Source: Clostridia bacterium
GTDB taxonomy: Bacteria > Bacillota > Clostridia > TANB77 > CAG-465
Assembly (NCBI GenBank): GCA_026415435.1
Contig: JAOAHC010000045.1
Coordinates: forward strand, 99,069-163,068
Reading direction: 5' to 3'
DNA length: 64,000 nt
This document shows, one piece after another, positions 9,435 through 55,093 of this stretch; position 1 is the stretch's first letter, and each line of letters opens with the position of its first letter. The notes beneath the pieces are model-generated. The model was not told the DNA's origin, did no database searches, and saw only the letters and a list, made by a program, of their open reading frames with translations. The position numbers were made by a program, and so were the translations under genes.

Positions 9435-9444
9435 GCGGTGTTTT

Positions 9445-9729: not shown

Positions 9730-9766
9730 TAGTAATTATATTATGAAAATTGTATAGGGGGTATAT

Positions 9767-20665: not shown

Positions 20666-20998
20666 ATGGAAGAACATTATTTAAAAATATTAGTAAAAGA
20701 TCCTGGTAAGAATCCTGAAGTGAAAAAAATACGAAAGCAATTAAAATCAATGCAAGACATAGTAGGAGGTTATATAGAAATAGTACCATATAAAGAGGCT
20801 ATAATTGTATGTAATGAAGAGGGGAAATTAAACAATTTAGAGCCAAATGTAAATCTGGACAAAGATTACATTGCAGGTTCTTTTTTTATTGTTGGAGATG
20901 ATGAAAAAAACGGAGACTTTAAAAGTTTAACAGATGAGCAAATAGAGAGATTCAAAAAAGAGTTTTCGATTAATTTAGAAGATGAAATGGAGATGTGA
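20666..20998 (+). CDS. Hypothetical protein (110 aa) upstream of the coupling-protein gene
   Basis: GGAGGTG RBS. Its stop overlaps the next gene's start. Confidence 0.55.
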   Translation: MEEHYLKILVKDPGKNPEVKKIRKQLKSMQDIVGGYIEIVPYKEAIIVCNEEGKLNNLEPNVNLDKDYIAGSFFIVGDDEKNGDFKSLTDEQIERFKKEFSINLEDEMEM

Positions 20999-20999
20999 T

Positions 21000-25865: not shown

Positions 25866-26480
25866 ATGAAATTTAGTGAATTTTTTAAACAAGAAAAAGA
25901 AAAATCTTGTAATGATGAAATAAATATAAAAGATATTAGAAATAATTTTTTATATACTAAAGACAATAAAATTATGATGTATATTAAGATCCAACCACTT
26001 AATATACATCTTTTATCTGAAAAAGAACAGGAGCAAATAATAAAAACACTTGCAGGAGAGTTATCAAGTGAAAATAGAGAAATGAAGTTTTTTAGTATAT
26101 CACGACCTGTTGATGTAGGTGATTTAATAGAAGATTTAAGAAAAATACAAAATGATAGCGTGGATCAAGTACAAAAAACATTATTAAATAAACATATTAA
26201 TGAAACAGTTAAACTTACATTTACAGGAGATGCGGTAGAGAGACAAAACTTTTTAATAATATGGCAAGATATAAGTGAATATGCAGAAAAAGATTTATTA
26301 AAAAGAGCTATGGATTTATTAAATAAATTTTCTAGTTGTAATATAAAAAGTGAAATATTAGAAGAACAATATATTATTCAGTTATGTAGTGGATTTACTA
26401 ATATGAATTTTGCATTTAAAGAAGATAGTGAATATAACGATTTTATGCCAAGTATAAGAAGGGAGGCAGATAATTATTGA
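25866..26480 (+). CDS. VirB4-family conjugation ATPase, N-terminal domain as a separate ORF
   Basis: GGAGGGG RBS. It ends at a TGA that overlaps the next ORF, which is in the -1 frame. Confidence 0.6.
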   Translation: MKFSEFFKQEKEKSCNDEINIKDIRNNFLYTKDNKIMMYIKIQPLNIHLLSEKEQEQIIKTLAGELSSENREMKFFSISRPVDVGDLIEDLRKIQNDSVDQVQKTLLNKHINETVKLTFTGDAVERQNFLIIWQDISEYAEKDLLKRAMDLLNKFSSCNIKSEILEEQYIIQLCSGFTNMNFAFKEDSEYNDFMPSIRREADNY

Positions 26481-40964: not shown

Positions 40965-42710
40965 ATGTTTGAACAATTTAATTTGAAAAATGTTATACTT
41001 ACAAAATATCTATTTTTTACTGGTAAAGGTGGCACAGGTAAAACATCAACAGCATGTAGTATAGCAGTTAATTTAGCTGAAAGTGGTAAAAAAGTTTATT
41101 TAGTAAGTACAGATCCGGCATCTAATTTACAAGATGTTTTTGATACTGAACTTACAAACAAAGCTAAAAATATAGAAGGAATATCTAATTTAGTTGTCTC
41201 TAATCTTGATCCAGTTAATTCTGCTAAAGAATATAGAGATTCAGTTATAGAACCATATATTGGCGTGTTACCAGAATCAGCAATAAAAAATATGGAGGAA
41301 CAATTATCGGGATCATGTACTGTAGAAATAGCAGCGTTCAATGAGTTTTCACACATTATAACTGATAAAGAAATAAGTAAAAACTATGATTATGTTATAT
41401 TTGATACTGCACCAACAGGGCATACTTTAAGAATGTTAGCTCTTCCATCTGCTTGGTCTAATTTTATTGATACAAATAAGTTTGGTGCATCTTGCTTAGG
41501 GCAATTATCAGGACTAGGAGATCAAAAAGAAATCTATCACGAAGCGGTAAACACACTTAAAGATAAAGAAAAAACAACACTTATACTTATAACTAGACCT
41601 GAAGAGACCCCTTTAAAAGAAGCTTCAAGATCATCAATGGAATTGAAAAATATTGGGATGAATAATCAAATACTAATAATAAATGGTATTATTACCGAAC
41701 ATGAAGATAGTGTATCTAGTTCAATATTTGATAAGCAATATAAATCAATACAAAATATGCCTGATGAATTATCAGACATAACTAAATATATGATACCATT
41801 AAGAGGATATAATATAATTGGAATCAATAATATAAGAGATTTAATAAATAAAGATAAATTTGATGAAATAAATGAAGAACTACATAGAGCAGATATAAAT
41901 TCCTTAAAAGATGTTATTGATGATATAGATCTAAATGAGAAGAAAGTTGTTTTTACTATGGGAAAAGGTGGAGTAGGAAAAACTACTATTGCATCTGCAG
42001 TAGCATTAGAACTAAGCGGTAGGGGTAAAAAAGTAGTACTTGCAACTACTGATCCAGCAGATCATCTGAAGTATGTTATATCTGAAAATGAAAATATAGA
42101 GATTATAAAAATAGATGAAAAAAAAGAACTTGAGGAATATAAACAAGAGGTTATTAGTAAAGCAATTGAAAATAATATAACTAACGATGATCTTGAATAT
42201 ATAAAAGAGGATTTAAGATCACCTTGCACGCAAGAAATAGCAGTTTTTAAAGCTTTTGCAAAGATAGTAGATAAAGCAGAAGATAAAGTAGTAATAATTG
42301 ATACAGCACCGACAGGGCATACATTATTATTACTCGATACTACTCAAAGTTATAATAAAGAAATAGCGAGAAGCCAGGGTGATGTACCGGAAGAAGTAAT
42401 TAAATTGTTACCTAGATTAAGAAATGAAAAAGAGACTGAGGTAATAATTGTTACATTACCAGAGGCAACACCAGTTTTAGAATCTAAAAGACTAATGGAA
42501 GATCTAAAGAGAGCAAACATATACACAAAGTGGTGGGTAATAAATTCAAGCATATATTTTAGTAATACAACAAATAAAACACTAAAGAGTAGGGCTATGA
42601 ATGAAATAAAATGGATTAATAAAGTAGATGAAATTACAAATAATAAATTTGCAGTAATAAAATGGATTGGAAATGATTTAAGGGGAAATGAGTTAAAAGC
42701 AATACTATAA
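40965..42710 (+). CDS. arsA: Arsenite-stimulated ATPase ArsA (duplicated P-loop halves)
   Basis: Two GKGGVGKT P-loops and two DTAPTGHTL signal-transduction motifs. Confidence 0.9.
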   Translation: MFEQFNLKNVILTKYLFFTGKGGTGKTSTACSIAVNLAESGKKVYLVSTDPASNLQDVFDTELTNKAKNIEGISNLVVSNLDPVNSAKEYRDSVIEPYIGVLPESAIKNMEEQLSGSCTVEIAAFNEFSHIITDKEISKNYDYVIFDTAPTGHTLRMLALPSAWSNFIDTNKFGASCLGQLSGLGDQKEIYHEAVNTLKDKEKTTLILITRPEETPLKEASRSSMELKNIGMNNQILIINGIITEHEDSVSSSIFDKQYKSIQNMPDELSDITKYMIPLRGYNIIGINNIRDLINKDKFDEINEELHRADINSLKDVIDDIDLNEKKVVFTMGKGGVGKTTIASAVALELSGRGKKVVLATTDPADHLKYVISENENIEIIKIDEKKELEEYKQEVISKAIENNITNDDLEYIKEDLRSPCTQEIAVFKAFAKIVDKAEDKVVIIDTAPTGHTLLLLDTTQSYNKEIARSQGDVPEEVIKLLPRLRNEKETEVIIVTLPEATPVLESKRLMEDLKRANIYTKWWVINSSIYFSNTTNKTLKSRAMNEIKWINKVDEITNNKFAVIKWIGNDLRGNELKAIL

Positions 42711-42801: not shown

Positions 42802-42961
42802 ATGGGACGCTGTAAGTGGGTGCTGTTGGGACGCCATAGATATAAAAAATGATAGGGTTTGACAAAGTTTGAAAAACGTGAACTGCTTGAAAACACTAAA
42901 AACAAAAAATAAGAGAGGTTATAAAAACCTCTCAAATTGGTCGGAGTGACAGGACTTGAAC
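42802..42961. repeat. Composite att region: arm-type GGGACGC repeats (42802-42835), a hairpin (42911-42934) and a 24-nt copy of the tRNA-Pro 3' end (42938-42961). Interpreted as attR of element A fused to attL of element B
   Basis: 42938-42961 is identical to 55018-55041 (TGGTCGGAGTGACAGGACTTGAAC). Confidence 0.7.
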
Positions 42962-43063
42962 ATGATAAATGAATTATTTTAAAATGTTTTATATTATTAT
43001 AAAATTGGTCATATTAAACCATTTGTTGAATTTAGTTGTCATAATTTATTTCGGGTTATTTTA

Positions 43064-43099
43064 AAGTGTCGTAGATTCCGACACTTTTTCGACACTTTA
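43064..43099. repeat. Three copies of CGACACTTT (one inverted, two direct), arm-type sites of element B
   Basis: The same CCGACACTTTTT(G/C)GACACTTT is found at 54930-54950, just inside the other end. Confidence 0.55.
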
Positions 43100-43320
43100 G
43101 GGGGAGTACTTTACATATCTTAAACATTATAAGAAATGTAATAGCCATATAGCACTAAGAGTAAATTGCCAAAGTTGAATTATAATAAATATTTAATAAA
43201 TATAACTTTTGTCGAATAATGTCACAAAAGTGTTTTATAAGATGATAATATTGCAAAAAACAGGAAAAAAATGTATAATATATTTAATAATTAAAGATAT
43301 ATAGCAAAGGATGTAGTTTT

Positions 43321-46300
43321 ATGGAAGTAAAAAAAGATATTGAAGAAGTTAAGAAAAATGTTAATATGTATTTCAAGGATGAAGCAGTAAAAAATTATAA
43401 AGAGGATAAATTATATAATGGACATATTTCAAAAAATATAATTAATACTATTGAAGCAAATAGTCCACCTTATAATATAGCACTAATAGGTAAATGGGGT
43501 ACAGGCAAAACAAGTATACTAAATTTTGTACAAGCAGACTTAGAGGAAAAGGGATATATTTTTACTACGATAAATGCTTGGAAATATGAAAAAGATTCTA
43601 TTAGAAAAGCTTTTATATTGGAAATATTAAAAAAATTAGATTATAAAGAAGAAAAAATAAAAGATATTATAAAAGAATTTTTGGAAAATTTAAGTAAGAA
43701 ATATTACATAGATGAAAAAAATATTGAATTAGAGAGTTCAAGTAAATTTAAGAAGTTCCAAAAGATTATAAATTTCTTTAAACATATTGGCATTTATATA
43801 TTAAATTTATTTAGGGGAATATTCACCTTTTTTCCAATGGTAGTCATTTATATTTCAACGTTAGCTGTAATTGATATTATATTAAATATATATGGCGTAA
43901 ATATAGAAGATTATAATGGCATTCGATTAGAAGCAATTTTAAGCATGGTGTTATTTGTAATTGGTATTATATATGATGGCACTAAAATAGTAGCAAAATC
44001 CAAAAGAATAATAAATGTGAATGAGAGTATAAAAGATGCAACGTATTATGAATCTGAACTAGAAAATTATTTAAAAAAGTATAAAGCTGATATGAAAAAT
44101 GCTGGGAAAAAATTTAGTGGTGTAGTATGTATTATCGATGATATGGATAGATTAAATGCTTCCAAGATTGTTGAATCATTAAGCGCTGTTAAGGGATTTG
44201 TTGGGCTAGAAGATATAATATTTATAGTACCATATGATGTAAATATTGTCAAAGAAGCTATAAAGAAGAATCAAAATAATATTAATAATTACAATGCTTA
44301 TGAATTGGTTGAAAGTGAATTAGTATTAAATAAACTTTTCCAATTTAAATTTTATTTGCCAGAGTTGATAAAGCAGGATATGTATGAATATATTATTAAG
44401 TTATTAGATTCAAATGAGTGTGAAGTAGGTTTTATTAATAATTTGTTTGATAAATATTATTTTACAAATAGTATTCTACCTATTCTAATACACGAGCTCA
44501 TAGATACTCCTAGAGAGGCAAAAAATATTATAAATGCTTTTGTAAGTAAATATATTATTGCTAAAAATAGGCAAGAAGAGGGAATATTAGATTTAGAGCA
44601 AAATGATATAAGAATGTTAGCAAAGCTTACTGTTTTAGAAAATGATTATAAAGAATTATATGATTATATTTTAGATTATCCTGATATTCTAGATATAGTA
44701 CTTGAAATGTCAAAAGAAAAAGATGATATTGATGGTGATATTTTAAACGTCAAAAATTATAAATTAGAAGATTATAGTAAAGAAGAAATAATAATCTTCA
44801 CAAAACTTTTAAAATGCTATCAAAGAGTAAAATTTAAGTCATTAATTAATTTTCTATCATCATACAGTACTTTAAATGCAGATAATGTTGAAAGATTGAT
44901 ATACCTAAAAAATAGTGAAAAGGAAAATAAACATGGTGGTAAGATTGTAAAAGAATTTATTAACTATTTGAAAAGTTTAAATATTGAAAGTGCTAAAACT
45001 ACAATTTCTAAAATTGATAATGCATCAGAATTAATATATTTAGAACTTAATAAGTTAGATAGCAATCCAGATAAAAGAGATAACTTAGCAATATCAACAA
45101 TAAAGTTATTTGATAATATAAATAATTATAAAGAAGAAATATATAATATGATAGATAGTTATTTAAGTTATATAGATATTGAAGATAAAAAATTAAATGA
45201 AATTAAAATAGATGATTTATTAAAGATAATGAATATTAATCCAAAATTAAGTAATATAAAAGAGATTTTTATTAATAAGCTAAAAAATTACGATTATTCA
45301 GTAGAATATACAGGAACACGTGACAATTCTGATTATTACAATACTGGTAGAGTTAGTGATGATATTAATAGTATTATAAAAAATATTGATTTATTAGATG
45401 AAAGTTTATCAGGAATTGTAAAAGAATTTATAAAAAAAATATTTACTAATAAATTAGATAAGGAAAATGGAATAACTCAATATAATTTAAATTTTCTTGT
45501 AAAAAATATTAAAATTAAACTAAATGACAACTTAATAAATAAAGTACTAGGAAAAGAGTATATAGAAAATGTAATTAAAAATATTAGTAAAAACAACTTT
45601 GATAATATTAATCATATAAAAGAATACTATATTTCAACTGATAAAATAGATGATTTTATAGAGTTGATTGTAGCTTATTGTATTGATAAAAAAATAATAG
45701 AAAAAATATTAGATATTCTTACAGAAATAATAGATAAAGCAAGTTTTGAAAAAAAGAAAGATATATATAATTCATTTAATGATATAGATTTTATTGATTT
45801 AAAAGAAAAAGAATTTAAGTACGAAAAACTTGATACTTTACTTGCAAAAATAGAATTAAATAGAATAAATGATAATAGTAGTATAGATGATTTTATGAAT
45901 ACTTTATTTAAAATTTATACTTTACCCAAGACATTATCAAAGTTAGTAGACATCAATCTATTAAATGAAATGCCAAGTACATTAAATATTATTGAAAATG
46001 ATTTAATAAATAATCAAGACTACAATTTTATCTTAAATGGATTGTTTAGTAAATTAAATTTGGAGAATAGGAAAGATTTAATTGAAAAAATTAAAAGTAA
46101 GTATGATGAGATTTCTGAATACAAAGATTTATTATCATTAAATAAATTTATTGATGTATTTAAAGATAAGAAGTATGGAAATACATATTTAAACTCTATT
46201 TCTTCTAAAATTATTAATAAACTAAGGGATATGGAAAGTAGTGTTGAAACAGAAGAAGTTATATATTCTTTATTAGATAAATTGCATGAGAATATATATG

Positions 46301-47136
46301 TCTGCGATATGAGTGTAAGGATAGAGTATTTAGAATTTATACTAGAAGATATATTTGATTATAATAAAGAAAAAGCATTAGAATATATAAATGAAATTAA
46401 TTTTGAAATAGATAGTGAGAAGTTAAAAGATACATTAAAAAAAGTTTTAAATAAAAATTCAAATATTTCAAATATTAAAAAATTTATTTTTAGAAATAGT
46501 AATGCAATTAAATCAAATAATGAATATAAAGAAGATTTTATAGAATCATTTATATTGGAGCAGAAAGGCAATGAAAATTTAGATGATGAATTATTTAAAT
46601 TTATAACTGAATTTGATAATTTAAATAATAAAGATATATTAAATTTATATACTAATTTCTGGAATATAAAGTATCTTAAATATTTGGATTATCTAATATT
46701 AAGGAGTTCCAATAAAATTGAATTAATAAAAAGCATTATAGACAGTAATTTAAATTTAGATTTACTAATAGATATAATTAAACTTAAAAGTTATGAATGG
46801 AATAAAGATTGCTTAAATGAACTGTTGAAAATAGGAGAATATAAGTATTTAAAATCAATACTTTATATTATTTCAAAACTTGATAATATAAAAGGTATAG
46901 GAAATTTATTATTAAATGAAAAATTGAGAGAATATGCATTAAAATTAGAAGAATCTGAATTAGTAGGATTTTCTGAGATATTATCTTTATTAAGATACAA
47001 AAAAATTATAAATAAAACTACTTCTAAAGATATATTTTCTAAGATTACAGTTCACTTAGAAAAAACAAAAAATATTGAAATATCAAACGAAGTACTAAAT
47101 AAAGTATCATTTTTAAATCCTAAAATAAATATATAG
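43321..47136 (+). CDS. Giant KAP-family P-loop NTPase (1271 aa) with a long Lys/Asn-rich helical C-terminal extension
   Basis: Walker A IALIGKWGTGKTS. Two TM helices are inserted in the NTPase domain, which is the KAP hallmark. Walker B region VCIIDDMDR. Confidence 0.8.
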   Translation: MEVKKDIEEVKKNVNMYFKDEAVKNYKEDKLYNGHISKNIINTIEANSPPYNIALIGKWGTGKTSILNFVQADLEEKGYIFTTINAWKYEKDSIRKAFILEILKKLDYKEEKIKDIIKEFLENLSKKYYIDEKNIELESSSKFKKFQKIINFFKHIGIYILNLFRGIFTFFPMVVIYISTLAVIDIILNIYGVNIEDYNGIRLEAILSMVLFVIGIIYDGTKIVAKSKRIINVNESIKDATYYESELENYLKKYKADMKNAGKKFSGVVCIIDDMDRLNASKIVESLSAVKGFVGLEDIIFIVPYDVNIVKEAIKKNQNNINNYNAYELVESELVLNKLFQFKFYLPELIKQDMYEYIIKLLDSNECEVGFINNLFDKYYFTNSILPILIHELIDTPREAKNIINAFVSKYIIAKNRQEEGILDLEQNDIRMLAKLTVLENDYKELYDYILDYPDILDIVLEMSKEKDDIDGDILNVKNYKLEDYSKEEIIIFTKLLKCYQRVKFKSLINFLSSYSTLNADNVERLIYLKNSEKENKHGGKIVKEFINYLKSLNIESAKTTISKIDNASELIYLELNKLDSNPDKRDNLAISTIKLFDNINNYKEEIYNMIDSYLSYIDIEDKKLNEIKIDDLLKIMNINPKLSNIKEIFINKLKNYDYSVEYTGTRDNSDYYNTGRVSDDINSIIKNIDLLDESLSGIVKEFIKKIFTNKLDKENGITQYNLNFLVKNIKIKLNDNLINKVLGKEYIENVIKNISKNNFDNINHIKEYYISTDKIDDFIELIVAYCIDKKIIEKILDILTEIIDKASFEKKKDIYNSFNDIDFIDLKEKEFKYEKLDTLLAKIELNRINDNSSIDDFMNTLFKIYTLPKTLSKLVDINLLNEMPSTLNIIENDLINNQDYNFILNGLFSKLNLENRKDLIEKIKSKYDEISEYKDLLSLNKFIDVFKDKKYGNTYLNSISSKIINKLRDMESSVETEEVIYSLLDKLHENIYVCDMSVRIEYLEFILEDIFDYNKEKALEYINEINFEIDSEKLKDTLKKVLNKNSNISNIKKFIFRNSNAIKSNNEYKEDFIESFILEQKGNENLDDELFKFITEFDNLNNKDILNLYTNFWNIKYLKYLDYLILRSSNKIELIKSIIDSNLNLDLLIDIIKLKSYEWNKDCLNELLKIGEYKYLKSILYIISKLDNIKGIGNLLLNEKLREYALKLEESELVGFSEILSLLRYKKIINKTTSKDIFSKITVHLEKTKNIEISNEVLNKVSFLNPKINI

Positions 47137-47150
47137 TATTATATAACTAC

Positions 47151-47183
47151 AAAATCGCTGTATAACTACACAGCGATTTTTAT
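47151..47183. terminator. Terminator shared by the KAP gene and the convergent small gene
   Basis: Stem AAAATCGCTG / CAGCGATTTT with a 10-nt loop. Confidence 0.6.
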
Positions 47184-47202
47184 ATGTTTATAAAAAAATC
47201 AA

Positions 47203-47364
47203 TTATTCTCTATTTGAAATGGCGAATTTTATCATTTCAATAACAACTTTATTAAATGATATTTTCTCTTTTTTTGCTATTTCTTCTATTATTTTTACAT
47301 CCGTTTCAGGGATTCTCAATGTTTTACTTATTTGAGTTACCTCTTTAGGTATCTTAAACTTCAT
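47203..47364 (-). CDS. Small ribbon-helix-helix (CopG/Arc-like) DNA-binding protein, 53 aa
   Basis: GGAGGA RBS. KTLRIPETDVKIIEEIAKKEKISFNKVVIEMIKF fits a beta-strand plus two helices. Not in the ORF track. Confidence 0.4.
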   Translation of the reverse strand: MKFKIPKEVTQISKTLRIPETDVKIIEEIAKKEKISFNKVVIEMIKFAISNRE

Positions 47365-47523
47365 ATAAATCCTCCAATCTATATTACATTTATAATATAG
47401 TTATATTTTATACTGAAAACAGCATATAAATCAGCACCTATAAATACAATTACAAAACAATTGCAAATATGGTTGCAAAAATACAAAATAAATGGTATAA
47501 TAATGCAAAAAGGAGATGTATTT

Positions 47524-48591
47524 ATGAATAAGATAAAAGAATTAATAAAAAAATATAAGATTTTATGCATTGTAATTACAATAGTGATAGTTTTAGTTAT
47601 ATCTACAATACTAGTGTTATATTTCAAGAATCCTAAAAATAGCTTTATATATAATCTAAACAATAATAACTTTACTAAGGCAAATGAAATATATGAAAAA
47701 AGTATTAAGTACGACAAGAAAGTACAAGTAGAAACTGAAATTGAAGTTGAAAAGATTATTGCTAGTATAACTGAAAACTTTAATAATGCTAAAAAAGGAT
47801 ATAATGAATCTATTGAATTACTTAATAGTGTTGAAAAAACTGGAATGCTAAAAGATAAGGTAATAGAAGCAAAAAAAATAGTTGAGGATTTAAATAAATC
47901 TAAAACGGCATATTTGAAAGCTATTGAATATAGTAAATCTGGAGATTATTATAATACTTTAGTTGAGTTTAATTCAGTAATTGAGAAAGATATAAATTAT
48001 AATATTGCTAAAGAGAAAAGTAGTGAAATTTTGAGCAAATATAGGGAAGAATTATTTAAAACAGTTGATGAAAATGTTGCAAAAGGAGATTATGATAAAT
48101 CAATAGAATTATTAACCCAATTAAGTAAGATTAGTCCAGAAGATAAAGAGATACAAACAAAAATTGAAGTATATAAAGATAAGAAAATTGTTAGTCTAAA
48201 AGATAAACAAGAAGTAAATGTAGTATCTGCAGATTTTCATACTCAATGGTATTCTGATACTGTTTCTGGGATAAAAGTTATAATAAAAAATAACACTAAT
48301 AAAGTAATAAAAAACTACACACTTGGAATATTAGCATATGATAAGGATAATTATCCTTTACAAATATCATATAGTAATACTCTTTTTAGGGGTAAAGGAG
48401 AATCAGTAAATATACAACCAGGACAGACTGGAGGAGAGGATACATATTTTGATATATACTATAACGAAGAAAAGATGAAGACTGCTATTGCATGTGTTGA
48501 AAGTGTTGAATACTATGACGGAACAGAATGGACTAATCCATATTATCAACTATGGTTAGAAAAATATAATGATAAGAGATACTCTAATTAA
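47524..48591 (+). CDS. Membrane-anchored extracytoplasmic protein of unknown function
   Basis: AAAGGAG RBS. N-terminal TM helix followed by a ~320-aa domain. Confidence 0.55.
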   Translation: MNKIKELIKKYKILCIVITIVIVLVISTILVLYFKNPKNSFIYNLNNNNFTKANEIYEKSIKYDKKVQVETEIEVEKIIASITENFNNAKKGYNESIELLNSVEKTGMLKDKVIEAKKIVEDLNKSKTAYLKAIEYSKSGDYYNTLVEFNSVIEKDINYNIAKEKSSEILSKYREELFKTVDENVAKGDYDKSIELLTQLSKISPEDKEIQTKIEVYKDKKIVSLKDKQEVNVVSADFHTQWYSDTVSGIKVIIKNNTNKVIKNYTLGILAYDKDNYPLQISYSNTLFRGKGESVNIQPGQTGGEDTYFDIYYNEEKMKTAIACVESVEYYDGTEWTNPYYQLWLEKYNDKRYSN

Positions 48592-49169
48592 GCTAAATTA
48601 AGGCACCTATGAAGCCCATATGAGCTTTTTAAATATATAATTGATAAATAATGCTTATAAAAATCAAATCAATTAAAACTTGTTATATTGAAGATAAATA
48701 AAAACATAGAAAAAACAGGAAAATTATATTAAAAATATATTTATTAATAAGTTTAATAATAGAGTTAGTAAGTTAAAAAAATATAAATATCTAATTAAAT
48801 ATACTTGTATAGAAAAAACAGTGTTATAAAAGAAAAATTTAACTATTAAAATTTAAGTAAATATTTTATATATAAAAAATTAATAAATTATGCTAAAAAT
48901 AATATTAACATATAAGTATTTATTTGCCTAATTTAATGTGTTTTGAGGAATATTATATTAAAATAATCAAAATTTCTTACAGGTAAATTAACCCTATGTT
49001 AGTCTAGAAAAATATGACAAGAAAAAGTATATAAATATTATTAAAAGGAACTGTAAATGGCTAGATATTAACATTTATTCTACTTTCAACAAATATGTTT
49101 CTACTAAAATAAAAATAAAGAGGTAAAACCTCCTTAAAGAAATGAACATTACTTAGTTTTATATGTATG

Positions 49170-49230
49170 ATATTTACCGTATTACTGTGTTTACCGATAC
49201 TAATCTACTTAGTATCGGTAAAACACTAGA
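49170..49230. repeat. Long imperfect palindrome (GTGTTTACCGATACTA...TAGTATCGGTAAAACAC), a candidate replication origin of element B
   Basis: A 16-bp stem with outer TACCGT/ACGGTA extension. It lies 25 bp downstream of the AAA_25 gene and borders a ~600-bp AT-rich noncoding stretch. Confidence 0.4.
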
Positions 49231-49253
49231 AACGGTATATTTTTATATAGAGA

Positions 49254-50339
49254 TTACTCTATAGGTCTAAATGTGTGGTCTCTACGACCATTTTTTCCGT
49301 TTTCAGGTGGTGGAGTATATTCTATGTCATCTTGATTTTTTAGTAATTCTTTTATATTCCTTAGATGCTTAGATAACGTAACGGGAGTATAAGAGAGATT
49401 ATTGTTATTATGTCTTTGGCAAACATCTAATAATTGCTGAGCACTACCAAACCACGCATATTCTGATTCTACTAGATGTTTTATTACTTTTACAACAGGG
49501 TCTTTTAGATAGTCTATTACTTTTTGCTGTTCTTGAAGTTCTTCTTTGTTTCCTATAAGTTCCCACTTACAAGTAGTATTATTAAATGAAATTATATAAT
49601 CATTTTCTACAATATCTCTACCAGTTATTGACCATTTTGTTTCTATATCCTCTCTTTTATTTTTCGTAAATACATATGCTGTATCAACCGCACCAAGTAT
49701 AGCAGTGGAACCAGAAATCATATTGAAAGAATCGCTATCATCCTTTGATTTCCTTAGATGGTGTATTAATAATATACATATATTATATTTATCAGCTAAA
49801 TTCTTTATTGCACTCATATCCCTATAGTCTCCAGCATACACATTTTGACTACCATATGCATTTTCTCTTACTTTTTGAAGAGTGTCTATAACTATTAGTT
49901 TTGTGTCTGGATGTTCTATAATATATAAATCTAAATAATCAATTAGCCCACTAGATAATCCAGGTATTTCTGTAGTAAAATTGAAATTACTTGGTGCTGT
50001 ATCATTGTTTAGTAGTTTTTCTACACGCTCTTTCAATCTTTTTTCACCATCCTCTAATGCTAAGTACAAGCATCCTGATTTTCTTGTTTCAAAACCAAGA
50101 AAGGGTAATCCTTTACTAACACTTAAGCATAAATCAAGAGCAAACCAACTCTTTTTTGATTTGGGTGGAGCAGCAAGTATTGATAAGCCTTGAGGTAGTA
50201 CCTTATCAACAATATATGTTGTAGGGTCAAATTCTTTGTTTTGCAGTTCTTGTGCAGATATTGTTCTTATTTTTTTCTTTTTTTTACTGTCTTCTTCTAA
50301 ATTGATAACAGTAGTTTCTTTTAAAATGTCTTTATCCAT
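49254..50339 (-). CDS. RecA-fold AAA_25 NTPase (RepA / primase-associated, replication-initiator-like)
   Basis: Walker A AAPPKSKKS and Walker B LIVIDTL. Strong AGGAGGAA RBS. Confidence 0.65.
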   Translation of the reverse strand: MDKDILKETTVINLEEDSKKKKKIRTISAQELQNKEFDPTTYIVDKVLPQGLSILAAPPKSKKSWFALDLCLSVSKGLPFLGFETRKSGCLYLALEDGEKRLKERVEKLLNNDTAPSNFNFTTEIPGLSSGLIDYLDLYIIEHPDTKLIVIDTLQKVRENAYGSQNVYAGDYRDMSAIKNLADKYNICILLIHHLRKSKDDSDSFNMISGSTAILGAVDTAYVFTKNKREDIETKWSITGRDIVENDYIISFNNTTCKWELIGNKEELQEQQKVIDYLKDPVVKVIKHLVESEYAWFGSAQQLLDVCQRHNNNNLSYTPVTLSKHLRNIKELLKNQDDIEYTPPPENGKNGRRDHTFRPIE

Positions 50340-50449
50340 TTTAGTTCCTCCTAATATAATTATCTTATCTTATCAATGTTAATTTAGGTTAACATTTGAT
50401 ATATCTAGAAATAAATTCTAGACCATTTAATACCAATTAAATTTAATAT

Positions 50450-50629
50450 TTATTCATTGTTTTGAGCAATATTTTTTTGTTCTAATATATACTCATTTAC
50501 ATCATCAATATTAAAAGTAATTTTTGAGCCAATTCTAAAGAATTTTATTTTCTTTTCTCTCACTAATTTCCTTATAGCAGATTCTGAACACCCTAAATAT
50601 TCAGCTAATTTTTTGACATTAAAAAACAT
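50450..50629 (-). CDS. Excisionase/AlpA-family HTH protein
   Basis: MFFNVKKLAEYLGCSESAIRKLVREKKIKFFRIGSKITF. AAGGAGG RBS. The ORF track starts at 50647. Confidence 0.65.
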   Translation of the reverse strand: MFFNVKKLAEYLGCSESAIRKLVREKKIKFFRIGSKITFNIDDVNEYILEQKNIAQNNE

Positions 50630-50861
50630 AAGTGAACCTCCTTTCATATAAAATTTGTAAATAAACGTTTATCTTACACTATTTATTATAACATTAGAAA
50701 TACTCAAAAATCAATACGATTTTACACGTTCGCATTGTTGAACATTTAGTAAATAAAAAGGAAATAGTGTCTTGTTTTTAATCATTATTAAATATGTGTA
50801 AAATAATATTGACAACAAACCTTTGGTATGCTATAATAATATATATTAGGGGGAGAACTTT

Positions 50862-51767
50862 ATGAAGAAATATATATTTCCAACTGAGGTTACGGGCTCA
50901 GAAAAAAAACAACAAAGTTATTTTACTAAAACGTTAAGAGAGACCAGAGAAAAGAGGGCTAGTGAATATAAAGATTCTAAATATAATCCTTACTCACAAA
51001 AAAGCATTGCTGAGAAAATAGGAGTTTCAAGAACAACTTATAGTAACTATGAAACAGGAGACAAATTACCTAAAATAGAGACATTTTATAAATTATGTGA
51101 AGTATTAGGTGTATCTTGCGATTATCTTTTAGGATACTCAAAAAGTCCAATAAGAGAAAATAGAGATGTAGCCAACTCTACAGGATTAAGTGATGAAAAT
51201 ATTGAAAAATTTAAGACTTATAAAGATAAAAAAATAACTTTATTTTTAATTAATAACATTCTTAATAATAGTAAGCTTATTAATCTTTTAAGAGAATATT
51301 TAGTTGAAAAACCTATGAAAGATATATTTAATGAAAATGAAGAACTAAATATATTCTTAAATAATTATAATTCTAACTTTGATAGTCATCCTATAAAAAC
51401 ATATATGGAAGAAAATAAGTATGAATATTATAAATTGATTGAGTATATGCCATTATTACAAGAAGAGTTTAAAAATAAACTTATTGATATTACAAATAAA
51501 AAAGATTATAGTCTATTCTTTGAGTTCTTTAGTTATTATGAGAAAATAAAAAATAGAGATAATGAGATTTATAATAAACTAGAAGATAATGAAATCAAAG
51601 TACATTCTGAGGAAGAAATAAAAGAAATGAATGAAAAGATGGATAAAATGGTAAGAGAGCATGAAGCTATTGAATTAGAAAAATATCTTGAAACTGATGA
51701 ATATAACATGTTTAAAAAAATCAATGAAAGTTATCAGGAATATTTAAAATCTAATTCAAAAGAATAA
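50862..51767 (+). CDS. XRE-family HTH regulator with a C-terminal extension (element repressor candidate)
   Basis: HTH QKSIAEKIGVSRTTYSNYETG. Confidence 0.75.
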   Translation: MKKYIFPTEVTGSEKKQQSYFTKTLRETREKRASEYKDSKYNPYSQKSIAEKIGVSRTTYSNYETGDKLPKIETFYKLCEVLGVSCDYLLGYSKSPIRENRDVANSTGLSDENIEKFKTYKDKKITLFLINNILNNSKLINLLREYLVEKPMKDIFNENEELNIFLNNYNSNFDSHPIKTYMEENKYEYYKLIEYMPLLQEEFKNKLIDITNKKDYSLFFEFFSYYEKIKNRDNEIYNKLEDNEIKVHSEEEIKEMNEKMDKMVREHEAIELEKYLETDEYNMFKKINESYQEYLKSNSKE

Positions 51768-51850
51768 TAATATTTTAGTTGTGGAGGTGATGTTAATGTG
51801 ATTATTTAAGTAAAAATAGATTGGAACTAGAAAAAAAGGAGGAATTTGAA

Positions 51851-52984
51851 TTGTCAGTTAGAGAAATAGCAAAAAATAAGTATAGAATAGAAATACCAAT
51901 AGCATATATAGGTTCGAAAAGAAAAAGGCATGTTGAGACACTTGATAATACAACATTAAAGCAAGCAAAGCTTAGAGAAGCTGAGATAAAATTAGAATTA
52001 ACTAATAACAATTATATAAAGAAGATTAATATTACTTTTGAACAACTATTAGATGAATGGCTTAAAATGCAAGAAAGTAAACTTGCAATAAAAACATATA
52101 AGAACTATGTTAATTATTCTAAAAGAATTAAAGATAGTATAGGATATGTTAAATTAAAAGATATAAACCCTAGAATATTAGAAGGTTTTTATAATGATTT
52201 AAGAACAAATACGACTTATGCTGATAAGACAATAAAACATTACTATACATTAATTAATACAGTATTAAGTACAGCAGTTAAATGGGATTATATAAAAACT
52301 AATCCAAATACTAAAGTAGATAAAATTATTGTAAAAAAGAAGCAAGGAAGATTTTATACACCTGAACAAGTAGCTAAATTAGTAAATGCTCTAGAAAGTG
52401 AAAGCTTAAAGTATAAAGTATTAATTATACTAGCAATAGATACAGGATGTAGAAGAGGAGAACTTACAGGATTAGAATGGAATGATATAGACTTTGAAAA
52501 AGGGATTATATATATAAATAAAACTACTCAATATGTAGCAGGAATAGGAACCTTTGAAAAGGGAACAAAAGGAAATAGAGGATACACTAGTGATAGAAAA
52601 ATTCATATATCTAAAACAACTAAAGAATTATTATTAGAATTTAAGGAAGAACAAAGCAAACTTAAAGATAAACTAGGAGAATTGTGGCAAGGTAGCAAAA
52701 GAATCTTTACAACTGATTGGGGAGCAGATATGCATCCTAATACACCATCGGCTATACTTACTAAAATACTAGAGAGAAATAAACTAGATTATATAAATTT
52801 TCATGGATTAAGACATACTAGTATTTCATTACAAATTGAGTTAGGGATACAACCACAGGTTATATCTAAGAGAGCAGGACATAGCAATTTAAATACAACT
52901 CATAGTATATACTCTCATTTCTTTGAAAGCAGTTTTGAAGAAGTACCAGAAAAGATAGATGCTTTTTTACATGCATCAACATAA
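51851..52984 (+). CDS. int: Tyrosine integrase (phage/island type)
   Basis: HGLRHTSISL...AGHSNLNTTHSIYSH catalytic residues. AGGAGG RBS 8 nt before TTG 51851. The ORF track starts at 51821. Confidence 0.85.
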   Translation: MSVREIAKNKYRIEIPIAYIGSKRKRHVETLDNTTLKQAKLREAEIKLELTNNNYIKKINITFEQLLDEWLKMQESKLAIKTYKNYVNYSKRIKDSIGYVKLKDINPRILEGFYNDLRTNTTYADKTIKHYYTLINTVLSTAVKWDYIKTNPNTKVDKIIVKKKQGRFYTPEQVAKLVNALESESLKYKVLIILAIDTGCRRGELTGLEWNDIDFEKGIIYINKTTQYVAGIGTFEKGTKGNRGYTSDRKIHISKTTKELLLEFKEEQSKLKDKLGELWQGSKRIFTTDWGADMHPNTPSAILTKILERNKLDYINFHGLRHTSISLQIELGIQPQVISKRAGHSNLNTTHSIYSHFFESSFEEVPEKIDAFLHAST

Positions 52985-53027
52985 AAGAATAAGGAAAGAT
53001 AGAATAGCACTCTATCTTTCTATTTTT
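52957..53027. repeat. 3' end of int plus its terminator hairpin (AAAGATAGA...TCTATCTTT); copy 1 of a duplicated segment
   Basis: Duplicated at 54829-54900 as two blocks of 25 nt and 19 nt. Confidence 0.6.
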
Positions 53028-53138
53028 ATATTACGTATAATTGTAATTAATAAAAAAATATGATATATTTTTATATAAAAAGATAGTGTATAAAAAATAT
53101 CGTAAATTATTGATTTTCTAAGATTAGGAGGAATAATA

Positions 53139-53912
53139 ATGAAACAACCATATTTAGTATTAATTGAAAGTGAAGAAGTTAAAAGGAATAAAACTAAATT
53201 AAATATACCAGGAATTTATAATTTTTTGCCACATGTATATGATGCATTAATGAAATTACCTTTTTATTGCGGAAAATTAGCTGAAGATGATGATATTAAT
53301 ATGATAAAAATCCAGGACGTATTTCAGTTTTATATATATGACTTTCCATTCAAAATTAGAAATATATATTCATTAATGGAAATAGGAAGTTATGCAGATG
53401 CTGTTATTTTATACCGCTCACTAATTGAAAGTTTTATTTTTTATAAGTACTATATTTTAAGGAAAGATGGTCATGGATTAAGCAAATATATTCTAAGGGA
53501 ATCTAAAAAAACTTTAAAAGATATTTTTGAATGTGTTATCCCAGGCTATTATAATGATATATATAGTGAACTGTGTAAATTTACACATGGAAATCCATTA
53601 ATACAAGCTATATTTAGGGGTAACGTATCAAAAGATAAACCTTTAAAGTCAAATATTAATAATATTAATATTGATTGGTTTTCATACATTCATAATCAAT
53701 TAATTCCTTTAATTATTGGAGTAACTGAAATGTATAAAATTGTATTTCCTAATAATATTATAAAAAACGATGAAATATTAATTAAAGATTTAGAGTATGT
53801 TTATAAGTTTATTAATGATGATATAGATTATAGAAAAGAATTTTTTATAACCCAGTTGCCGATGATAAATTATTATAATAAAATAATTAGAATGAACTTA
53901 GATACAAATTAA
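53139..53912 (+). CDS. Hypothetical protein (257 aa)
   Basis: AGGAGG RBS. Confidence 0.55.
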   Translation: MKQPYLVLIESEEVKRNKTKLNIPGIYNFLPHVYDALMKLPFYCGKLAEDDDINMIKIQDVFQFYIYDFPFKIRNIYSLMEIGSYADAVILYRSLIESFIFYKYYILRKDGHGLSKYILRESKKTLKDIFECVIPGYYNDIYSELCKFTHGNPLIQAIFRGNVSKDKPLKSNINNINIDWFSYIHNQLIPLIIGVTEMYKIVFPNNIIKNDEILIKDLEYVYKFINDDIDYRKEFFITQLPMINYYNKIIRMNLDTN

Positions 53913-53989
53913 TATTAATAAAATACATAAACTTTAGAACTATTGTTCTTTTGGATTTTACATGTTATAATACTAAAAGGGGGTATAAT

Positions 53990-54739
53990 ATGGAACAGAA
54001 AGAATTATATAAAATAGTCAGTAAATATTTTTCTAATGAAATTAATTATATGAATGTATATGGGGATATAAAACAAGAAGAAATTGTTAAAATGTTTAAA
54101 TCACTATATTCTTATGAAAGACCTGATTTCTTTTCTATATATGATAATAAATTAATAGGAATAGAACATTTTGAATTTGATAGTTATAAGAAAAATACTA
54201 AAGGTAGTGATTATAGAAAAAAAGAAGCATTAATAAATAAAGAAGTAGATAAAGCTAATAAACAATTAAAAGTTAATAATGATATGATTATGCTACACAA
54301 TGAAATAGTTAATACTTCATCAGCTGAAAGTTATATTAATAATTTATATACTGTATTTAACAGTCACTATGAAAAAATAGCTGAGTATGAAAATAATTTT
54401 AAAACAGATGTTAATTTTAAAAATATGGAAATAGAAATTTGGTTTTTTATTGAAGATGTAACTCCTTTAGGAAATTTCTATATTAATGATAATGATAAAA
54501 TTTGTTTTTTTGATATTATTCATATTAAACAATTTATAGAATTATTAGCTAAATCTCCAAATGTTAAAGGTATAATAGGTACAAGTTTTAATGGGAAGGA
54601 AGATAAAATTAGCATTATAAAAAATAATAGTGAAACATTAAAAGTGTTAAAGTCAGAATGTGTTGACATTGAAACAAAAAAATTGCAGGCTTTTAATCCA
54701 CAATTATTAGATTATACACTAATTATACCTAAAAAATAA
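53990..54739 (+). CDS. Hypothetical protein (249 aa)
   Basis: AAGGGGG RBS before ATG 53990. Confidence 0.5.
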   Translation: MEQKELYKIVSKYFSNEINYMNVYGDIKQEEIVKMFKSLYSYERPDFFSIYDNKLIGIEHFEFDSYKKNTKGSDYRKKEALINKEVDKANKQLKVNNDMIMLHNEIVNTSSAESYINNLYTVFNSHYEKIAEYENNFKTDVNFKNMEIEIWFFIEDVTPLGNFYINDNDKICFFDIIHIKQFIELLAKSPNVKGIIGTSFNGKEDKISIIKNNSETLKVLKSECVDIETKKLQAFNPQLLDYTLIIPKK

Positions 54740-54828
54740 TAGTACGCATTATATGCAATTTGGTTTTTTTAAAATTACAAATGACCATTAGAGTATAAAT
54801 TGATATGTGAAAATATAAATAAGCAAAA

Positions 54829-54900
54829 AAAAGATGCACTTTTACATGCATCAACATAAAAGAATATTTATTTAAAAAAGAAGAATAGCACTCTATCTTT
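54829..54900. repeat. Remnant of an integrase 3' end (codons DALLHAST-stop) plus a terminator-like sequence; copy 2
   Basis: 54842-54866 is identical to 52967-52991, and 54882-54900 is identical to 53001-53019. Confidence 0.6.
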
Positions 54901-54929
54901 TCTAAAACATAATTAGATAAAATAAAAGT

Positions 54930-54950
54930 CCGACACTTTTTGGACACTTT
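54930..54950. repeat. Arm-type repeat CCGACACTTTTTGGACACTTT of element B (right end)
   Basis: Matches 43078-43098. Confidence 0.55.
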
Positions 54951-55017
54951 TTATAGTATTAACAAAATACATAAACTGTATAACCATTGATATGACTGAC
55001 TTTTAAACTATATAAGA

Positions 55018-55093
55018 TGGTCGGAGTGACAGGACTTGAACCTGCAACCCCATGGTCCCAAACCACGTGCGCTACCAATTGCGCTACACCCCG
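55018..55093 (-). tRNA. tRNA-Pro (anticodon UGG) with encoded CCA
   Basis: The reverse complement folds as a cloverleaf, CGGGGTG...TTTGGGA...GGTTCAAGTCCTGTCACTCCGACCA, very similar to Bacillus tRNA-Pro. Confidence 0.9.

Follow-up and report, generated by a model that had tools for sequence, protein, structure and literature searches.

A tRNA-Pro-integrated Clostridial island resembling minimal phage satellites, with likely anti-phage cargo

Canonical Gram-positive PICIs such as the SaPIs are islands of ~12-15 kb at a specific att site that lack structural and lysis genes; one strand carries int and the repressor, the opposite strand xis-rep with a cis site directly 3′ of rep, and accessory genes occupy the two ends (PMC6092414). 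Satellites without packaging genes have precedents in the StCIs (PMC13376191), the PICMIs (PMC10803314) and the cargo-type tycheposons (10.1101/2020.12.28.424599). The StCIs of S. thermophilus, which are Type C PICIs, are induced by phage, use competence to move and make their hosts phage-resistant (Morency et al. 2026, PMC13376191). The island described here, found in a 64 kb window (the whole stretch of DNA analysed) of an uncultured Clostridia bacterium, shares the PICI plan outlined above, yet it lacks terS, cpm, ppi and the pti module, has a helicase of another family and no Pri, and carries a nested palindrome 3′ of rep where the PICI origin has an AT-rich region between two sets of iterons (PMC6092414). 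Its likeness to Type C PICIs and StCIs (SatelliteFinder, PMC10085698; PMC13376191) is one of gene make-up: 7-20 kb between direct repeats, an integrase with regulatory and replication genes but none for structure or packaging, defence genes often among the cargo, and only three of five PICI core components. It differs from them in its stand-alone AAA_25 SF4 helicase without a primase and in its uncultured Clostridia host. The PICMIs of Vibrionaceae (PMC10803314) are similarly minimal satellites, in which int, a replication gene and a regulator of AlpA/HTH_17 type accompany a hotspot of fast-turnover defence genes and capsid-remodelling genes are missing, but these are unidirectional, ~6 kb elements next to fis with DUF3987/DUF5906 primases, whereas our 12-kb island lies at tRNA-Pro and has a RepA helicase and a divergent XRE switch. 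Compared by gene content, the Prochlorococcus tycheposons, cargo-carrying or PICI-like (10.1101/2020.12.28.424599), are also tRNA-integrated and encode a tyrosine recombinase, an excisionase and a helicase/primase, and a common pool of integration and replication genes supplies elements with packaging genes as well as those with cargo alone, a split which recurs in the RepA family; they belong to a different phylum with different hallmark gene families, and their cargo serves nutrient acquisition and not defence. We read the island as an intact, tRNA-Pro-integrated 'hitcher' allied to phage satellites (PICI-like, 'Type C') with anti-phage cargo, with a probability of about one half; satellite is the best but not the sole reading, as RepA relatives also occur in relaxase-bearing elements and an ICE lies 3 kb away.

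The 12.1 kb island occupies positions 42938-55044 and, as the initial annotation proposed, lies between direct repeats of the tRNA-Pro 3′ end, whose two 27-nt copies (42938-42964 and 55018-55044) agree at 26 of 27 positions. The right copy, attR, is the 3′ end of the tRNA-Pro(UGG) gene (55018-55093, minus strand) and the left copy, attL, is the displaced original end; a minus-strand terminator (42933-42913) stands immediately outside it, as expected of such an end. The 24-nt core of the repeat occurs twice in the window, both times at the island ends, with zero occurrences expected. Three GACACTTT repeats, one of them inverted, cluster in the left arm (43063-43098) and a pair stands in the right arm (54932-54950); all five copies of this 8-mer in the 64 kb window fall inside the two att-proximal arms, and they are probably arm-type Int/Xis binding sites. 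The att core, the arm repeats and the promoters of the island are intact. A remnant copy of the int 3′ end with its terminator (54825-54905), downstream of the second cargo, is the footprint of either cassette capture or a collapsed tandem array.

The strand layout is as first annotated, with a tyrosine integrase (387 aa, start codon uncertain, 51821-52984; Pfam Phage_integrase 7e-24, SAM-like domains, phrog_1 1e-70) and an XRE-family regulator (301 aa, 50862-51767; Pfam HTH_3 1e-14, phrog_8 4e-16, NCBIfam RstR-like) on the plus strand, and an excisionase, Xis (50450-50629), and the AAA_25 RepA (49254-50339) diverging from them on the minus strand. A terminator follows int at 52993-53021. Xis is of HTH_17/MerR type (Pfam HTH_17 3e-12, TIGR01764 'excise' 1.5e-11, phrog_66 excisionase) and runs for 59 aa from an ATG with a strong RBS, a start chosen by comparison with the close relative L001 (below), within an ORF which reaches 50647. 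The divergent switch region (50648-50861) holds a sigma-70 promoter for XRE with a perfect consensus match (50809-50837), a leftward promoter (50714-50685) and an operator-like 17-nt inverted repeat (50711-50727/50796-50812) covering part of both -35 boxes. The XRE protein joins an N-terminal HTH to a ~200 aa C-terminal domain of no known kind, has no S24 or M78 peptidase domain, finds the ICEBs1 Xre regulator among its PDB matches and is not conserved in L001; it is a candidate master repressor with a role like that of Stl/Rpr.

RepA is a stand-alone, RecA-fold protein of 361 aa (Pfam AAA_25 6e-25), named 'helicase RepA family protein' by NCBI, which its profile matches assign to the SF4 replicative-helicase family: PHROG matches are to DnaB-like and primase-helicase families, the family profile matches RSF1010 RepA (1G8Y) and Twinkle, and relatives are fused to PrimPol or adjoin a DnaG Zn-ribbon. 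A check for homology to non-replicative functions, raised by the initial annotation, found none. Its Walker A motif is PPKSKKS, with a K where the usual G stands (G in 162 of 169 relatives). The island has no primase gene. Immediately 3′ of repA lies a nested palindrome with four TACCG/CGGTA half-sites (49173-49239), the long palindrome noted earlier at 49170-49230, which is real: perfect 14-nt arms (49190-49203/49209-49222; up to 17 nt when extended) lie within a 29-bp imperfect hairpin (49175-49237) with a DNA fold energy of -18.5 kcal/mol (z = -6.8). It is conserved in L001, with arms kept and loop diverged (~2-3 changes in 59 arm positions, against a repA dS of 0.44), and is a candidate origin or RepA loading site. 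The intrinsic terminator of the xis-repA transcript (49116-49136, minus strand) is likewise conserved.

The ~600-bp AT-rich noncoding tract also exists, at 662 bp (48592-49253; 18% GC in 48500-48999), but its assignment to a PICI-type origin does not stand. Homology between the window and L001 ends at 48631 and restarts at 49074, and L001 carries 5.4 kb of defence genes in the same place (an acetyltransferase, an AbiA reverse transcriptase and an Mrr-type nuclease), so the tract is an empty cargo slot; in our island this slot (48632-49073) is 442 bp, AT-rich and without an ORF, Rfam match or phage DNA match. Of the int-stl/str-xis-rep-ori-accessory arrangement once proposed, the int-repressor/xis-rep-(cis site) order fits the PICI description (PMC6092414), as do the island's size, its att site in a tRNA gene and the absence of structural genes; the AT-rich tract as ori drops out.

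The cargo is likely anti-phage. Cargo 1 (43321-47136, plus strand) is a KAP-family P-loop NTPase of 1271 aa (Pfam KAP_NTPase 2e-28; PADLOC PifA 5e-20, QatA 3e-16; an NCBIfam QatA match below cut-off) with a membrane insert and a ~860 aa C-terminal region without a known match; L001 has a different gene at this position. Phage defence has been shown for KAP NTPases fused to unknown regions (PMC13552941), and this one is a probable anti-phage protein. Cargo 2 comprises a DUF5677 protein with an all-alpha bundle (2a, 53139-53912, plus strand), whose closest homologue lies inside an ICE, and a 249 aa member of a 30-member family (2b, 53990-54739, plus strand; ORF from 53951), probably of PD-(D/E)xK nuclease fold. 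Between the first cargo and the slot lie two backbone genes: a 53 aa Arc-like ribbon-helix-helix (RHH) protein (47203-47364, minus strand; weak PHROG Arc-like repressor matches) and a membrane-anchored protein that combines TPR-like repeats with a DUF5780 domain at its C terminus (47524-48591, plus strand; Pfam DUF5780 2e-28), whose ATG at 47524 agrees with a 355-aa L001 homologue. The accessory genes had been described as running convergently; the KAP NTPase and DUF5780 genes do point toward repA, and the description is amended by the minus-strand RHH gene between them and by two further genes between int and attR.

A single close relative of the island, L001, was found in the very large collections searched. 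Its RepA is 86% identical to ours, with nucleotide identities of 84% over xis-repA-palindrome and 85% over RHH-DUF5780; RHH is 94% and DUF5780 82-85% identical. With dS of 0.44-0.82 for RepA, RHH and DUF5780, dN/dS was 0.17 for RepA, 0.15 for DUF5780, 0.03 for RHH and 0.46 for Xis, ratios that indicate purifying selection on the first three after the two elements diverged. The cargo of L001 includes AbiA (1e-58), the Mrr-type nuclease and an SspH-like ATPase, and at least three island positions have differing or inserted cargo; that the differences fall at defined slots implies ongoing cargo exchange. The suggestion of a decayed satellite is not borne out, because the packaging-free backbone recurs under purifying selection in this independent sample, beside intact att core, arm repeats and promoters.

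The absence of terS, ppi and cpm-like genes was confirmed with Pfam, PHROGs, NCBIfam and PADLOC, and terS, capsid-remodelling and interference genes were also missing at fold level. Neither Pfam nor PHROGs detected a terminase, capsid, portal or relaxase in the island, nor did a fold search of its two unknown genes. There were no remnants of capsid genes, no recognisable oriT, no partition or stability module, and no DNA similarity to any phage as a mark of a shared cos or pac site; no attP junction or circular form was found in IMG/VR, and no prophage is visible in the 64 kb window.

After L001, the nearest RepA homologues are in capsid-encoding satellite-like islands and temperate phages: islands L086-88 with serine recombinase, repressor, cro, RepA, scaffold and major capsid genes (49% identity), L090, a 12.9-kb cfPICI-like contig with portal, protease, capsid, HNH and TerL (47%), and the temperate phage L082 (45%). 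A neighbour-joining tree places our island and L001 beside L114 (Int and a capsid gene), outside the relaxase clade. Capsid-encoding satellites (cfPICI, 10.1101/2022.09.08.507074; Clostridial L086-88, L090 and L114) share the RepA family (44-49%) and the left recombinase-repressor/cro/xis-RepA module. On the right of RepA they carry capsid, scaffold, portal, protease or TerL genes, and our island the cargo slot, RHH, DUF5780 and KAP NTPase.

Several observations count against the satellite reading: the island lacks terS, capsid-remodelling and interference genes and a primase, has a palindrome 3′ of repA in place of an iteron-type origin, an unusual Walker-A K, an ICE as neighbour with no prophage in the window, one close relative in the collections searched, no DNA similarity to any phage and no attP junction in IMG/VR. 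Some of these would also suit a domesticated, non-transferable remnant, once a satellite with its own capsid genes or a small prophage, which lost its packaging module and became a fixed defence island with idle int, xis and repA: no transfer or packaging function was detected, the RepA Walker A is non-canonical, one relative and no circular form (IMG/VR) were found, and the duplicated int 3′ end records a past rearrangement. We consider this unlikely given the purifying selection on RepA, RHH and DUF5780 (dN/dS 0.03-0.17 at dS 0.44-0.82), the retention of the Walker-A K in both elements, the 26/27 att repeat with arm repeats on both sides, the perfect consensus promoter and strong RBSs, and the cargo differences at defined slots, which imply ongoing exchange.

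It is more doubtful that the island is an integrative mobilizable element whose excised, RepA-replicated circle moves through a T4SS borrowed from a conjugative element, for instance the Tn916-like ICE 3 kb upstream (~17-39.7 kb of the window; MobL relaxase, VirD4, VirB4), with the palindrome as an oriT recognised in trans and RHH as a relaxosome accessory factor. RHH does have the fold of NikA/MobC-type accessory proteins, cargo 2a has its nearest homologue within an ICE, and 22 of 168 RepA-family loci are DUF6076-RepA-NikA(RHH)-MobA/VirD2 relaxase-serine recombinase elements; these (L052-L081) are likewise small, integrative and helper-dependent. However, they carry a relaxase with an RHH partner and serine recombinases, while no relaxase domain occurs in any of the nine island proteins, and their RepAs are the most distant group (37-39% identity) in a clade of their own. 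The island and the ICE have only short AT-rich words in common, their integrases are 27% identical and the tRNA-Pro site is not used by the ICE; the divergent XRE/Xis switch and the nearest RepA contexts are of phage or satellite type. Least probable is a helper-independent replicon whose excision and replication resemble those of an integrative plasmid and which reaches new cells by transformation, either as naked DNA or in vesicles, with phage at most an inducer. In S. thermophilus, satellites with the same gene make-up use natural competence (PMC13376191), tycheposons occur in vesicles (10.1101/2020.12.28.424599) and the island is complete for excision, replication and re-integration with nothing for packaging, but few plasmids carry its RepA family (20 of 72,556 records, versus 360 phage records), a partition or stability module is missing and the nearest relatives have capsid genes.

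Under the satellite reading, the XRE protein would hold the leftward xis-repA promoter shut until a signal, most likely a phage protein by analogy with peptidase-less Stl-type repressors, lifts repression. Int and Xis would then recombine the two copies of the 27-nt core and so free the island, and RepA would load at the palindrome and amplify the circle with host primase and polymerase; the island can probably excise and replicate itself. Copies would leave by means not encoded on the island, perhaps packaged by a helper phage, either from a cos/pac-like site or as headful-packaged concatemers, or released at lysis and then taken up. Meanwhile the KAP NTPase and the DUF5677 and nuclease-like pair would shield the host from phages. 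The island is a further, unexceptional example of the established "minimal phage-satellite-like" islands, and its lineage most likely derives from capsid-encoding Clostridial satellites with which it shares the replication module, defence cargo standing where those have their capsid module.

The 12.1 kb tRNA-Pro-integrated island is best seen as an intact satellite-type hitcher, replicative and integrase-mobilised, with defence cargo but no packaging function of its own, and we put the probability that it is a discrete, functional element at about 0.85. Its borders follow from the single tRNA gene in the window, tRNA-Pro(UGG) (55018-55093, minus strand), which was also the sole match in an Rfam scan of the island (E ≤ 1). 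The 27-nt 3' end of this gene is repeated at 42938-42964 with 26 of 27 positions identical, and the 24-nt repeat core occurs twice in the window (G+C ~25%), where no copy is expected. An intrinsic terminator on the tRNA strand (42933..42913, minus) lies directly outside the left copy, as expected if that copy is the displaced original tRNA end, and the att repeats together with this displaced end therefore delimit the island precisely to 42938-55044. The octamer GACACTTT has five copies in the 64 kb window, all in two att-proximal patches, three of them 100-160 nt inside attL (the left repeat copy) and two 68-86 nt inside attR (the right copy), and these may be arm-type recombinase sites. The attP junction of a circular form had no match in IMG/VR, and neither the whole island nor its noncoding tract matched phage or plasmid records.

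Nearest attL lies the plus-strand gene of a 1271-aa KAP-family P-loop NTPase with a PifA/QatA-like N-terminal part (43321-47136), followed on the opposite strand by a 53-aa ribbon-helix-helix (RHH) protein, then by a membrane-anchored DUF5780 protein with TPR-like repeats, a 662 bp ORF-free stretch and, on the minus strand, RepA (AAA_25, 361 aa; 49254-50339) and the HTH_17 excisionase Xis. A 214 bp switch region separates xis from the plus-strand gene of a 301-aa regulator of the XRE family that lacks a peptidase domain, after which come the tyrosine integrase (plus strand, inside the island) and, between int and attR, plus-strand genes for a DUF5677 protein (53139-53912) and a family-less 249-aa protein (ORF from 53951, to 54739). 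XRE and Int on the plus strand thus stand divergent to Xis and RepA on the minus strand. Within the switch region, the XRE gene has a perfect TTGACA-17-TGnTATAAT promoter and xis-repA a leftward one, each -35 box being covered by one arm of a 17-nt inverted repeat, and we infer that the XRE protein is the repressor. Every element of the layout described in the initial annotation was recovered, and all the genes it named are present, but its gene list had overlooked the RHH gene and the pair that lies between int and attR. In this last interval, the final int codons and terminator (52950-53021) are duplicated at 54825-54905, downstream of the two cargo genes, and a second segment of 36 nt is duplicated as well (53910-53945 versus 54954-54989), which looks like a trace left by cassette capture or by the collapse of a tandem array.

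None of the nine island proteins matched a structural or lysis family, and Pfam, PHROGs, NCBIfam and PADLOC gave no terminase, capsid, portal, scaffold, head-tail or lysis match in the island; the one 'terS' PHROG hit (phrog_57, 2.7e-4) comes from the shared HTH of the 59-65-aa Xis. A tblastn search with all proteins of 18 related loci found no capsid or terminase pseudogene remnants in the island, and the structural, lysis or packaging remnants that would mark a defective prophage are absent. Fold searches of two uncharacterised island proteins returned nuclease-like and helical-bundle folds, and single-sequence PDB searches of both gave nothing significant; a weak SMODS Pfam match of one such protein (E 0.002, below cut-off) received no support from the fold search. 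For the DUF5677 protein, which forms an all-alpha bundle, all matches were unspecific, and its closest homologue (80%) is a cargo gene within an ICE conjugation module. Judged by these folds, neither protein looks packaging-related, and the earlier statement that no terS-, ppi- or cpm-like genes are visible is borne out by the Pfam, PHROG and fold searches. Small family-less interference proteins of the Ppi kind are possible in the island, the RHH gene being the only such small ORF.

Comparison with the one close relative, L001 (a 16 kb contig from SRR22315502 with RepA 86% identical), separated backbone from cargo. Two blocks are shared, xis-repA with 180 nt downstream (50644..49074, 84% identity) and the DUF5780 and RHH genes (48631..47203, 85% identity), with 442 bp of AT-rich DNA between them in the window versus 5.4 kb in L001, where an acetyltransferase, an AbiA-type reverse transcriptase (PADLOC 1e-58) and an Mrr-type nuclease (785 aa) are encoded. 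Beyond the RHH gene, the position which the KAP NTPase holds in the window is taken in L001 by an SspH-like ATPase of the FtsK family together with a 1323-aa protein. The acetyltransferase, reverse transcriptase, nuclease and SspH-like ATPase make up the L001 cargo at L001:2564-7575 and 9140-10474, and the XRE genes of the two elements are unrelated. By this alignment the AT-rich tract is a cargo slot, empty in the window and with terminators at its borders, and not a conserved cis element; the origin role which the initial annotation had implied for it was rejected for its absence of conservation in L001. The palindrome, located between the repA stop codon and a terminator, has arms nearly unchanged in L001 with the loop replaced, and folds as a 29-bp hairpin (z = -6.8). 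It is nested, with four TACCG half-sites and no direct iterons around an AT-rich spacer, and is the best origin candidate, preferred to the AT-rich tract; alternatively it may serve for single-strand initiation or, with lower likelihood, as an oriT. Single matches to an arm 19-mer in IMG/VR and in metagenomes were due to chance, lying in unrelated coding sequence with no palindrome.

RepA carries the NCBI name 'helicase RepA family protein', matches AAA_25 (Pfam, 6e-25) and matches PHROG families annotated as DnaB-like helicase, primase/helicase and polymerase/primase. Single-sequence PDB searches gave no significant match, and a 27-member family profile run against all PDB sequences matched the RSF1010 RepA helicase (1G8Y) and Twinkle. 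Many relatives of 600-700 aa have an N-terminal PrimPol, NrS-1-type HBD or PriCT domain or sit downstream of a DnaG zinc-ribbon gene. The domains, profile and PHROG matches therefore place the homology of RepA with replicative helicases; the refuting condition set in the initial annotation, homology to a non-replicative function, thus does not apply. The Walker B (IVIDTLQ) and HHLRK motifs of SF4 (RepA/DnaB/Twinkle) helicases are conserved. Walker A is atypical (PPKSKKS, with KKS and not GKS; residues 58-64, window 50150-50170), its glycine being replaced by K in the window and L001 alike and retained as G in 162 of 169 relatives, and RepA with this variant is nevertheless under purifying selection.

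We fetched 168 loci encoding RepA relatives from genomes, IMG/VR and assemblies and marked them with Pfam-characterised reference proteins. Three contexts recur: temperate phages, small satellite-like islands and integrative mobilizable elements (IMEs), and the RepA family is clearly common to several kinds of helper-dependent elements. The temperate phages encode an S24 repressor, SNF2 helicase, HNH, TerS and TerL, and one phage locus, L082, has Terminase_3 and an SPP1-type portal. Among the islands, L086-L088 combine a serine recombinase, repressor, cro and RepA (49% identity) with a scaffold and a major capsid gene (L086:7236-15580). A 12.9 kb IMG/VR contig, L090 (RepA 47% identity), has a complete complement of cfPICI-type head and packaging genes, arranged as int, XRE, PrimPol-RepA, portal, S78 protease, HK97-type capsid, HNH and TerL (L090:501-12524), and its gene order indicates a cfPICI-type organisation in Clostridia-like sequence.

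Other arrangements were seen in the same loci. Small Clostridial islands and viral contigs of 8-14 kb (L086-L088, L114, L121-L124, L099, L101, L104, L127, L134 and L135) make up a widespread group with scaffold-like (DUF4355) and Phage_capsid_4 genes after the RepA module, terminase and portal being absent; 18 loci were positive for the Phage_capsid_4 marker only, and islands of this composition are possible capsid-redirecting satellites. A ~4 kb island with no marker gene (L085:8263-12442) has pth and spo0A as its neighbours in a Clostridia genome and encodes HTH_26, a DUF4352 lipoprotein-like protein, a 63-aa protein, RepA, a 94-aa protein and an integrase. L083 is a 9394-bp circular assembly with a 46-bp terminal overlap, carrying int, an S24 repressor, cro, RepA, a few small genes and nothing else. 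At 99.97-100% identity it matches the left end (L082:1-9468) of L082, a 44.7 kb phage-like contig which comes from a sister sample and has its terminase and portal after the matching segment. A ~119-bp direct repeat is apparent at both ends of that segment from overlapping BLAST coordinates; L083 is either a replicon-only phage derivative or a satellite adjoining the phage. The island L089:5562-13615 has a DnaG Zn-ribbon gene, RepA, two N6/N4 methyltransferases, and an AAA_15/21 ATPase with a UvrD-type helicase, a Gabija-like pair by domain content.

PICIs are characterised by a specific att site that prophages never use, repressor and int divergent to xis-rep-ori, a length of 12-15 kb free of structural and lysis genes, genes for interference or packaging (terS, capsid morphogenesis, ppi), induction by a helper with specific packaging into its particles, and an origin directly 3' of the primase or replication initiator with two iteron sets flanking an AT-rich region (PMC6092414). 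The island shares the integrase with att direct repeats, the divergent layout, the size (12.1 kb) and the absence of structural and lysis genes, but has no terS, capsid morphogenesis or ppi gene. For the origin the comparison goes both ways, since a replicative-family helicase gene is present with a conserved palindrome 3' of it, but there is no primase and the palindrome differs from the iteron/AT-rich/iteron arrangement. The observation first made is confirmed and its PICI-like interpretation partly supported. SatelliteFinder demands at least four of five core components (int, regulator, pri-rep, capsid morphogenesis, terS) for PICI Types A and B, and leaves an ambiguous Type C class of more than 6000 elements deliberately unclassified (PMC10085698); with at most three of five (int, regulator, replication gene), the island corresponds to Type C by component count. 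cfPICIs encode their own capsid, portal, protease, connector and terminase, none of which is in the island, whilst its relative L090 has them. Satellites that lack packaging genes have functional precedents in PICMIs, StCIs and tycheposons. PICMIs have a hotspot for defence genes, undergo packaging as concatemers and carry int, AlpA (PF05930/PF12728) and a DUF3987/DUF5906 primase next to fis (PMC10803314); the island shares int and a PF12728 HTH_17 protein but lacks such a primase and occupies tRNA-Pro, not fis. The StCIs of S. thermophilus are Type C elements which virulent phages induce, competence moves and which confer phage resistance (PMC13376191). Tycheposons draw on one integration/replication gene pool for packaging-gene-bearing and cargo-only elements (10.1101/2020.12.28.424599), the same split that is seen in the RepA family. 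KAP NTPases fused to uncharacterised regions were recently shown to be anti-phage (PMC13552941).

How the island moves can be weighed against its neighbours and relatives. Mobilisation by a conjugative element might draw on the Tn916-like ICE at about 17400-39701 (left end approximate; Element A of the initial annotation), which encodes a MobL relaxase (18441-19577), a VirD4/TraG-type coupling protein (20982-22844), a VirB4 ATPase (26477-28306), TED/SpaA adhesins (33268-35974), an orf7-like sigma factor (37083-37487), Xis (38281-38526) and Int (38526-39701). Upstream of these, cargo-like genes begin at about position 7590 (P-type ATPase, 7590-9434; MacB/FtsX permease, 10465-12759), and an ars operon with two ArsR-like regulators, an ArsD-like gene and ArsA, as read from translations, lies between ICE and island (39824-42710). 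Some RepA relatives do belong to IMEs (L052, L053, L059, L061-L064, L066, L068, L071, L075, L080 and L081), in the order DUF6076 (divergent), RepA, NikA-like RHH, MobA/VirD2 relaxase, a 97-aa protein and a large serine recombinase. These RepAs, however, share 37-39% identity with that of the window and form a separate clade in a neighbour-joining tree, in which the window and L001 proteins branch beside L114 (integrase and capsid gene), outside the relaxase clade. RepA homologues occur in 360 of 50,697 phage records versus 20 of 72,556 plasmid records, and the tree and these counts place the nearest evolutionary neighbourhood of RepA in phages or satellites. No island protein has the relaxase domain expected of an IME (Pfam, PHROGs), no oriT is recognisable from sequence, and ICE and island have no similarity beyond short AT-rich words, for which reason mimicry of the ICE oriT was rejected. 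Tandem accretion at the tRNA site was likewise rejected, there being no third repeat, integrases 27% identical and a Tn916-type xis-int end on the ICE. Conjugative mobilisation is thus improbable.

The absence of packaging genes had also suggested a decayed satellite, but the same packaging-free backbone is shared with L001 at dN/dS of 0.17 for RepA, 0.15 for DUF5780 and 0.03 for RHH (dS 0.44-0.82), which shows that it is kept by selection and is no one-off product of decay; a domesticated remnant is accordingly unlikely, if slightly less so than conjugative transfer. Helper-independent spread we consider the least probable route. The satellite-type hitcher remains our preferred reading, with the chances of dependence on a helper phage specifically about even; no prophage is visible in the window.

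The island opens no new category and does not solve the transfer mode of such elements. A bolder and rather doubtful proposal is that the window element and L001 belong to a stable lineage of Clostridial defence-gene carriers that replicate and are mobilised by an integrase. Such a lineage would have split from capsid-encoding satellites, dropped all packaging functions and kept a private backbone of Xis, Walker-A-variant RepA, palindromic cis site, RHH and membrane DUF5780 protein, and its route of spread would be new among satellites of Firmicutes anaerobes, for example cos/pac mimicry that needs no satellite-encoded protein, concatemer packaging, or release by lysis followed by uptake. If true, this would be a Firmicutes counterpart of the tycheposon 'cargo-type versus PICI-type' split. 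If the hitcher reading is right, the island adds an example from uncultured Clostridia to the growing class of packaging-free, defence-carrying satellites and hitchers, beside the thousands of catalogued 'Type C' elements whose mobility is mostly unproven. The L001 comparison delimits a minimal backbone, reveals a conserved cis element more plausible as the origin than the AT-rich tract, and marks three cargo slots as a possible source of new anti-phage genes, with the C-terminal region of the large KAP NTPase, the DUF5677 protein and a 30-member nuclease-like family as candidates.
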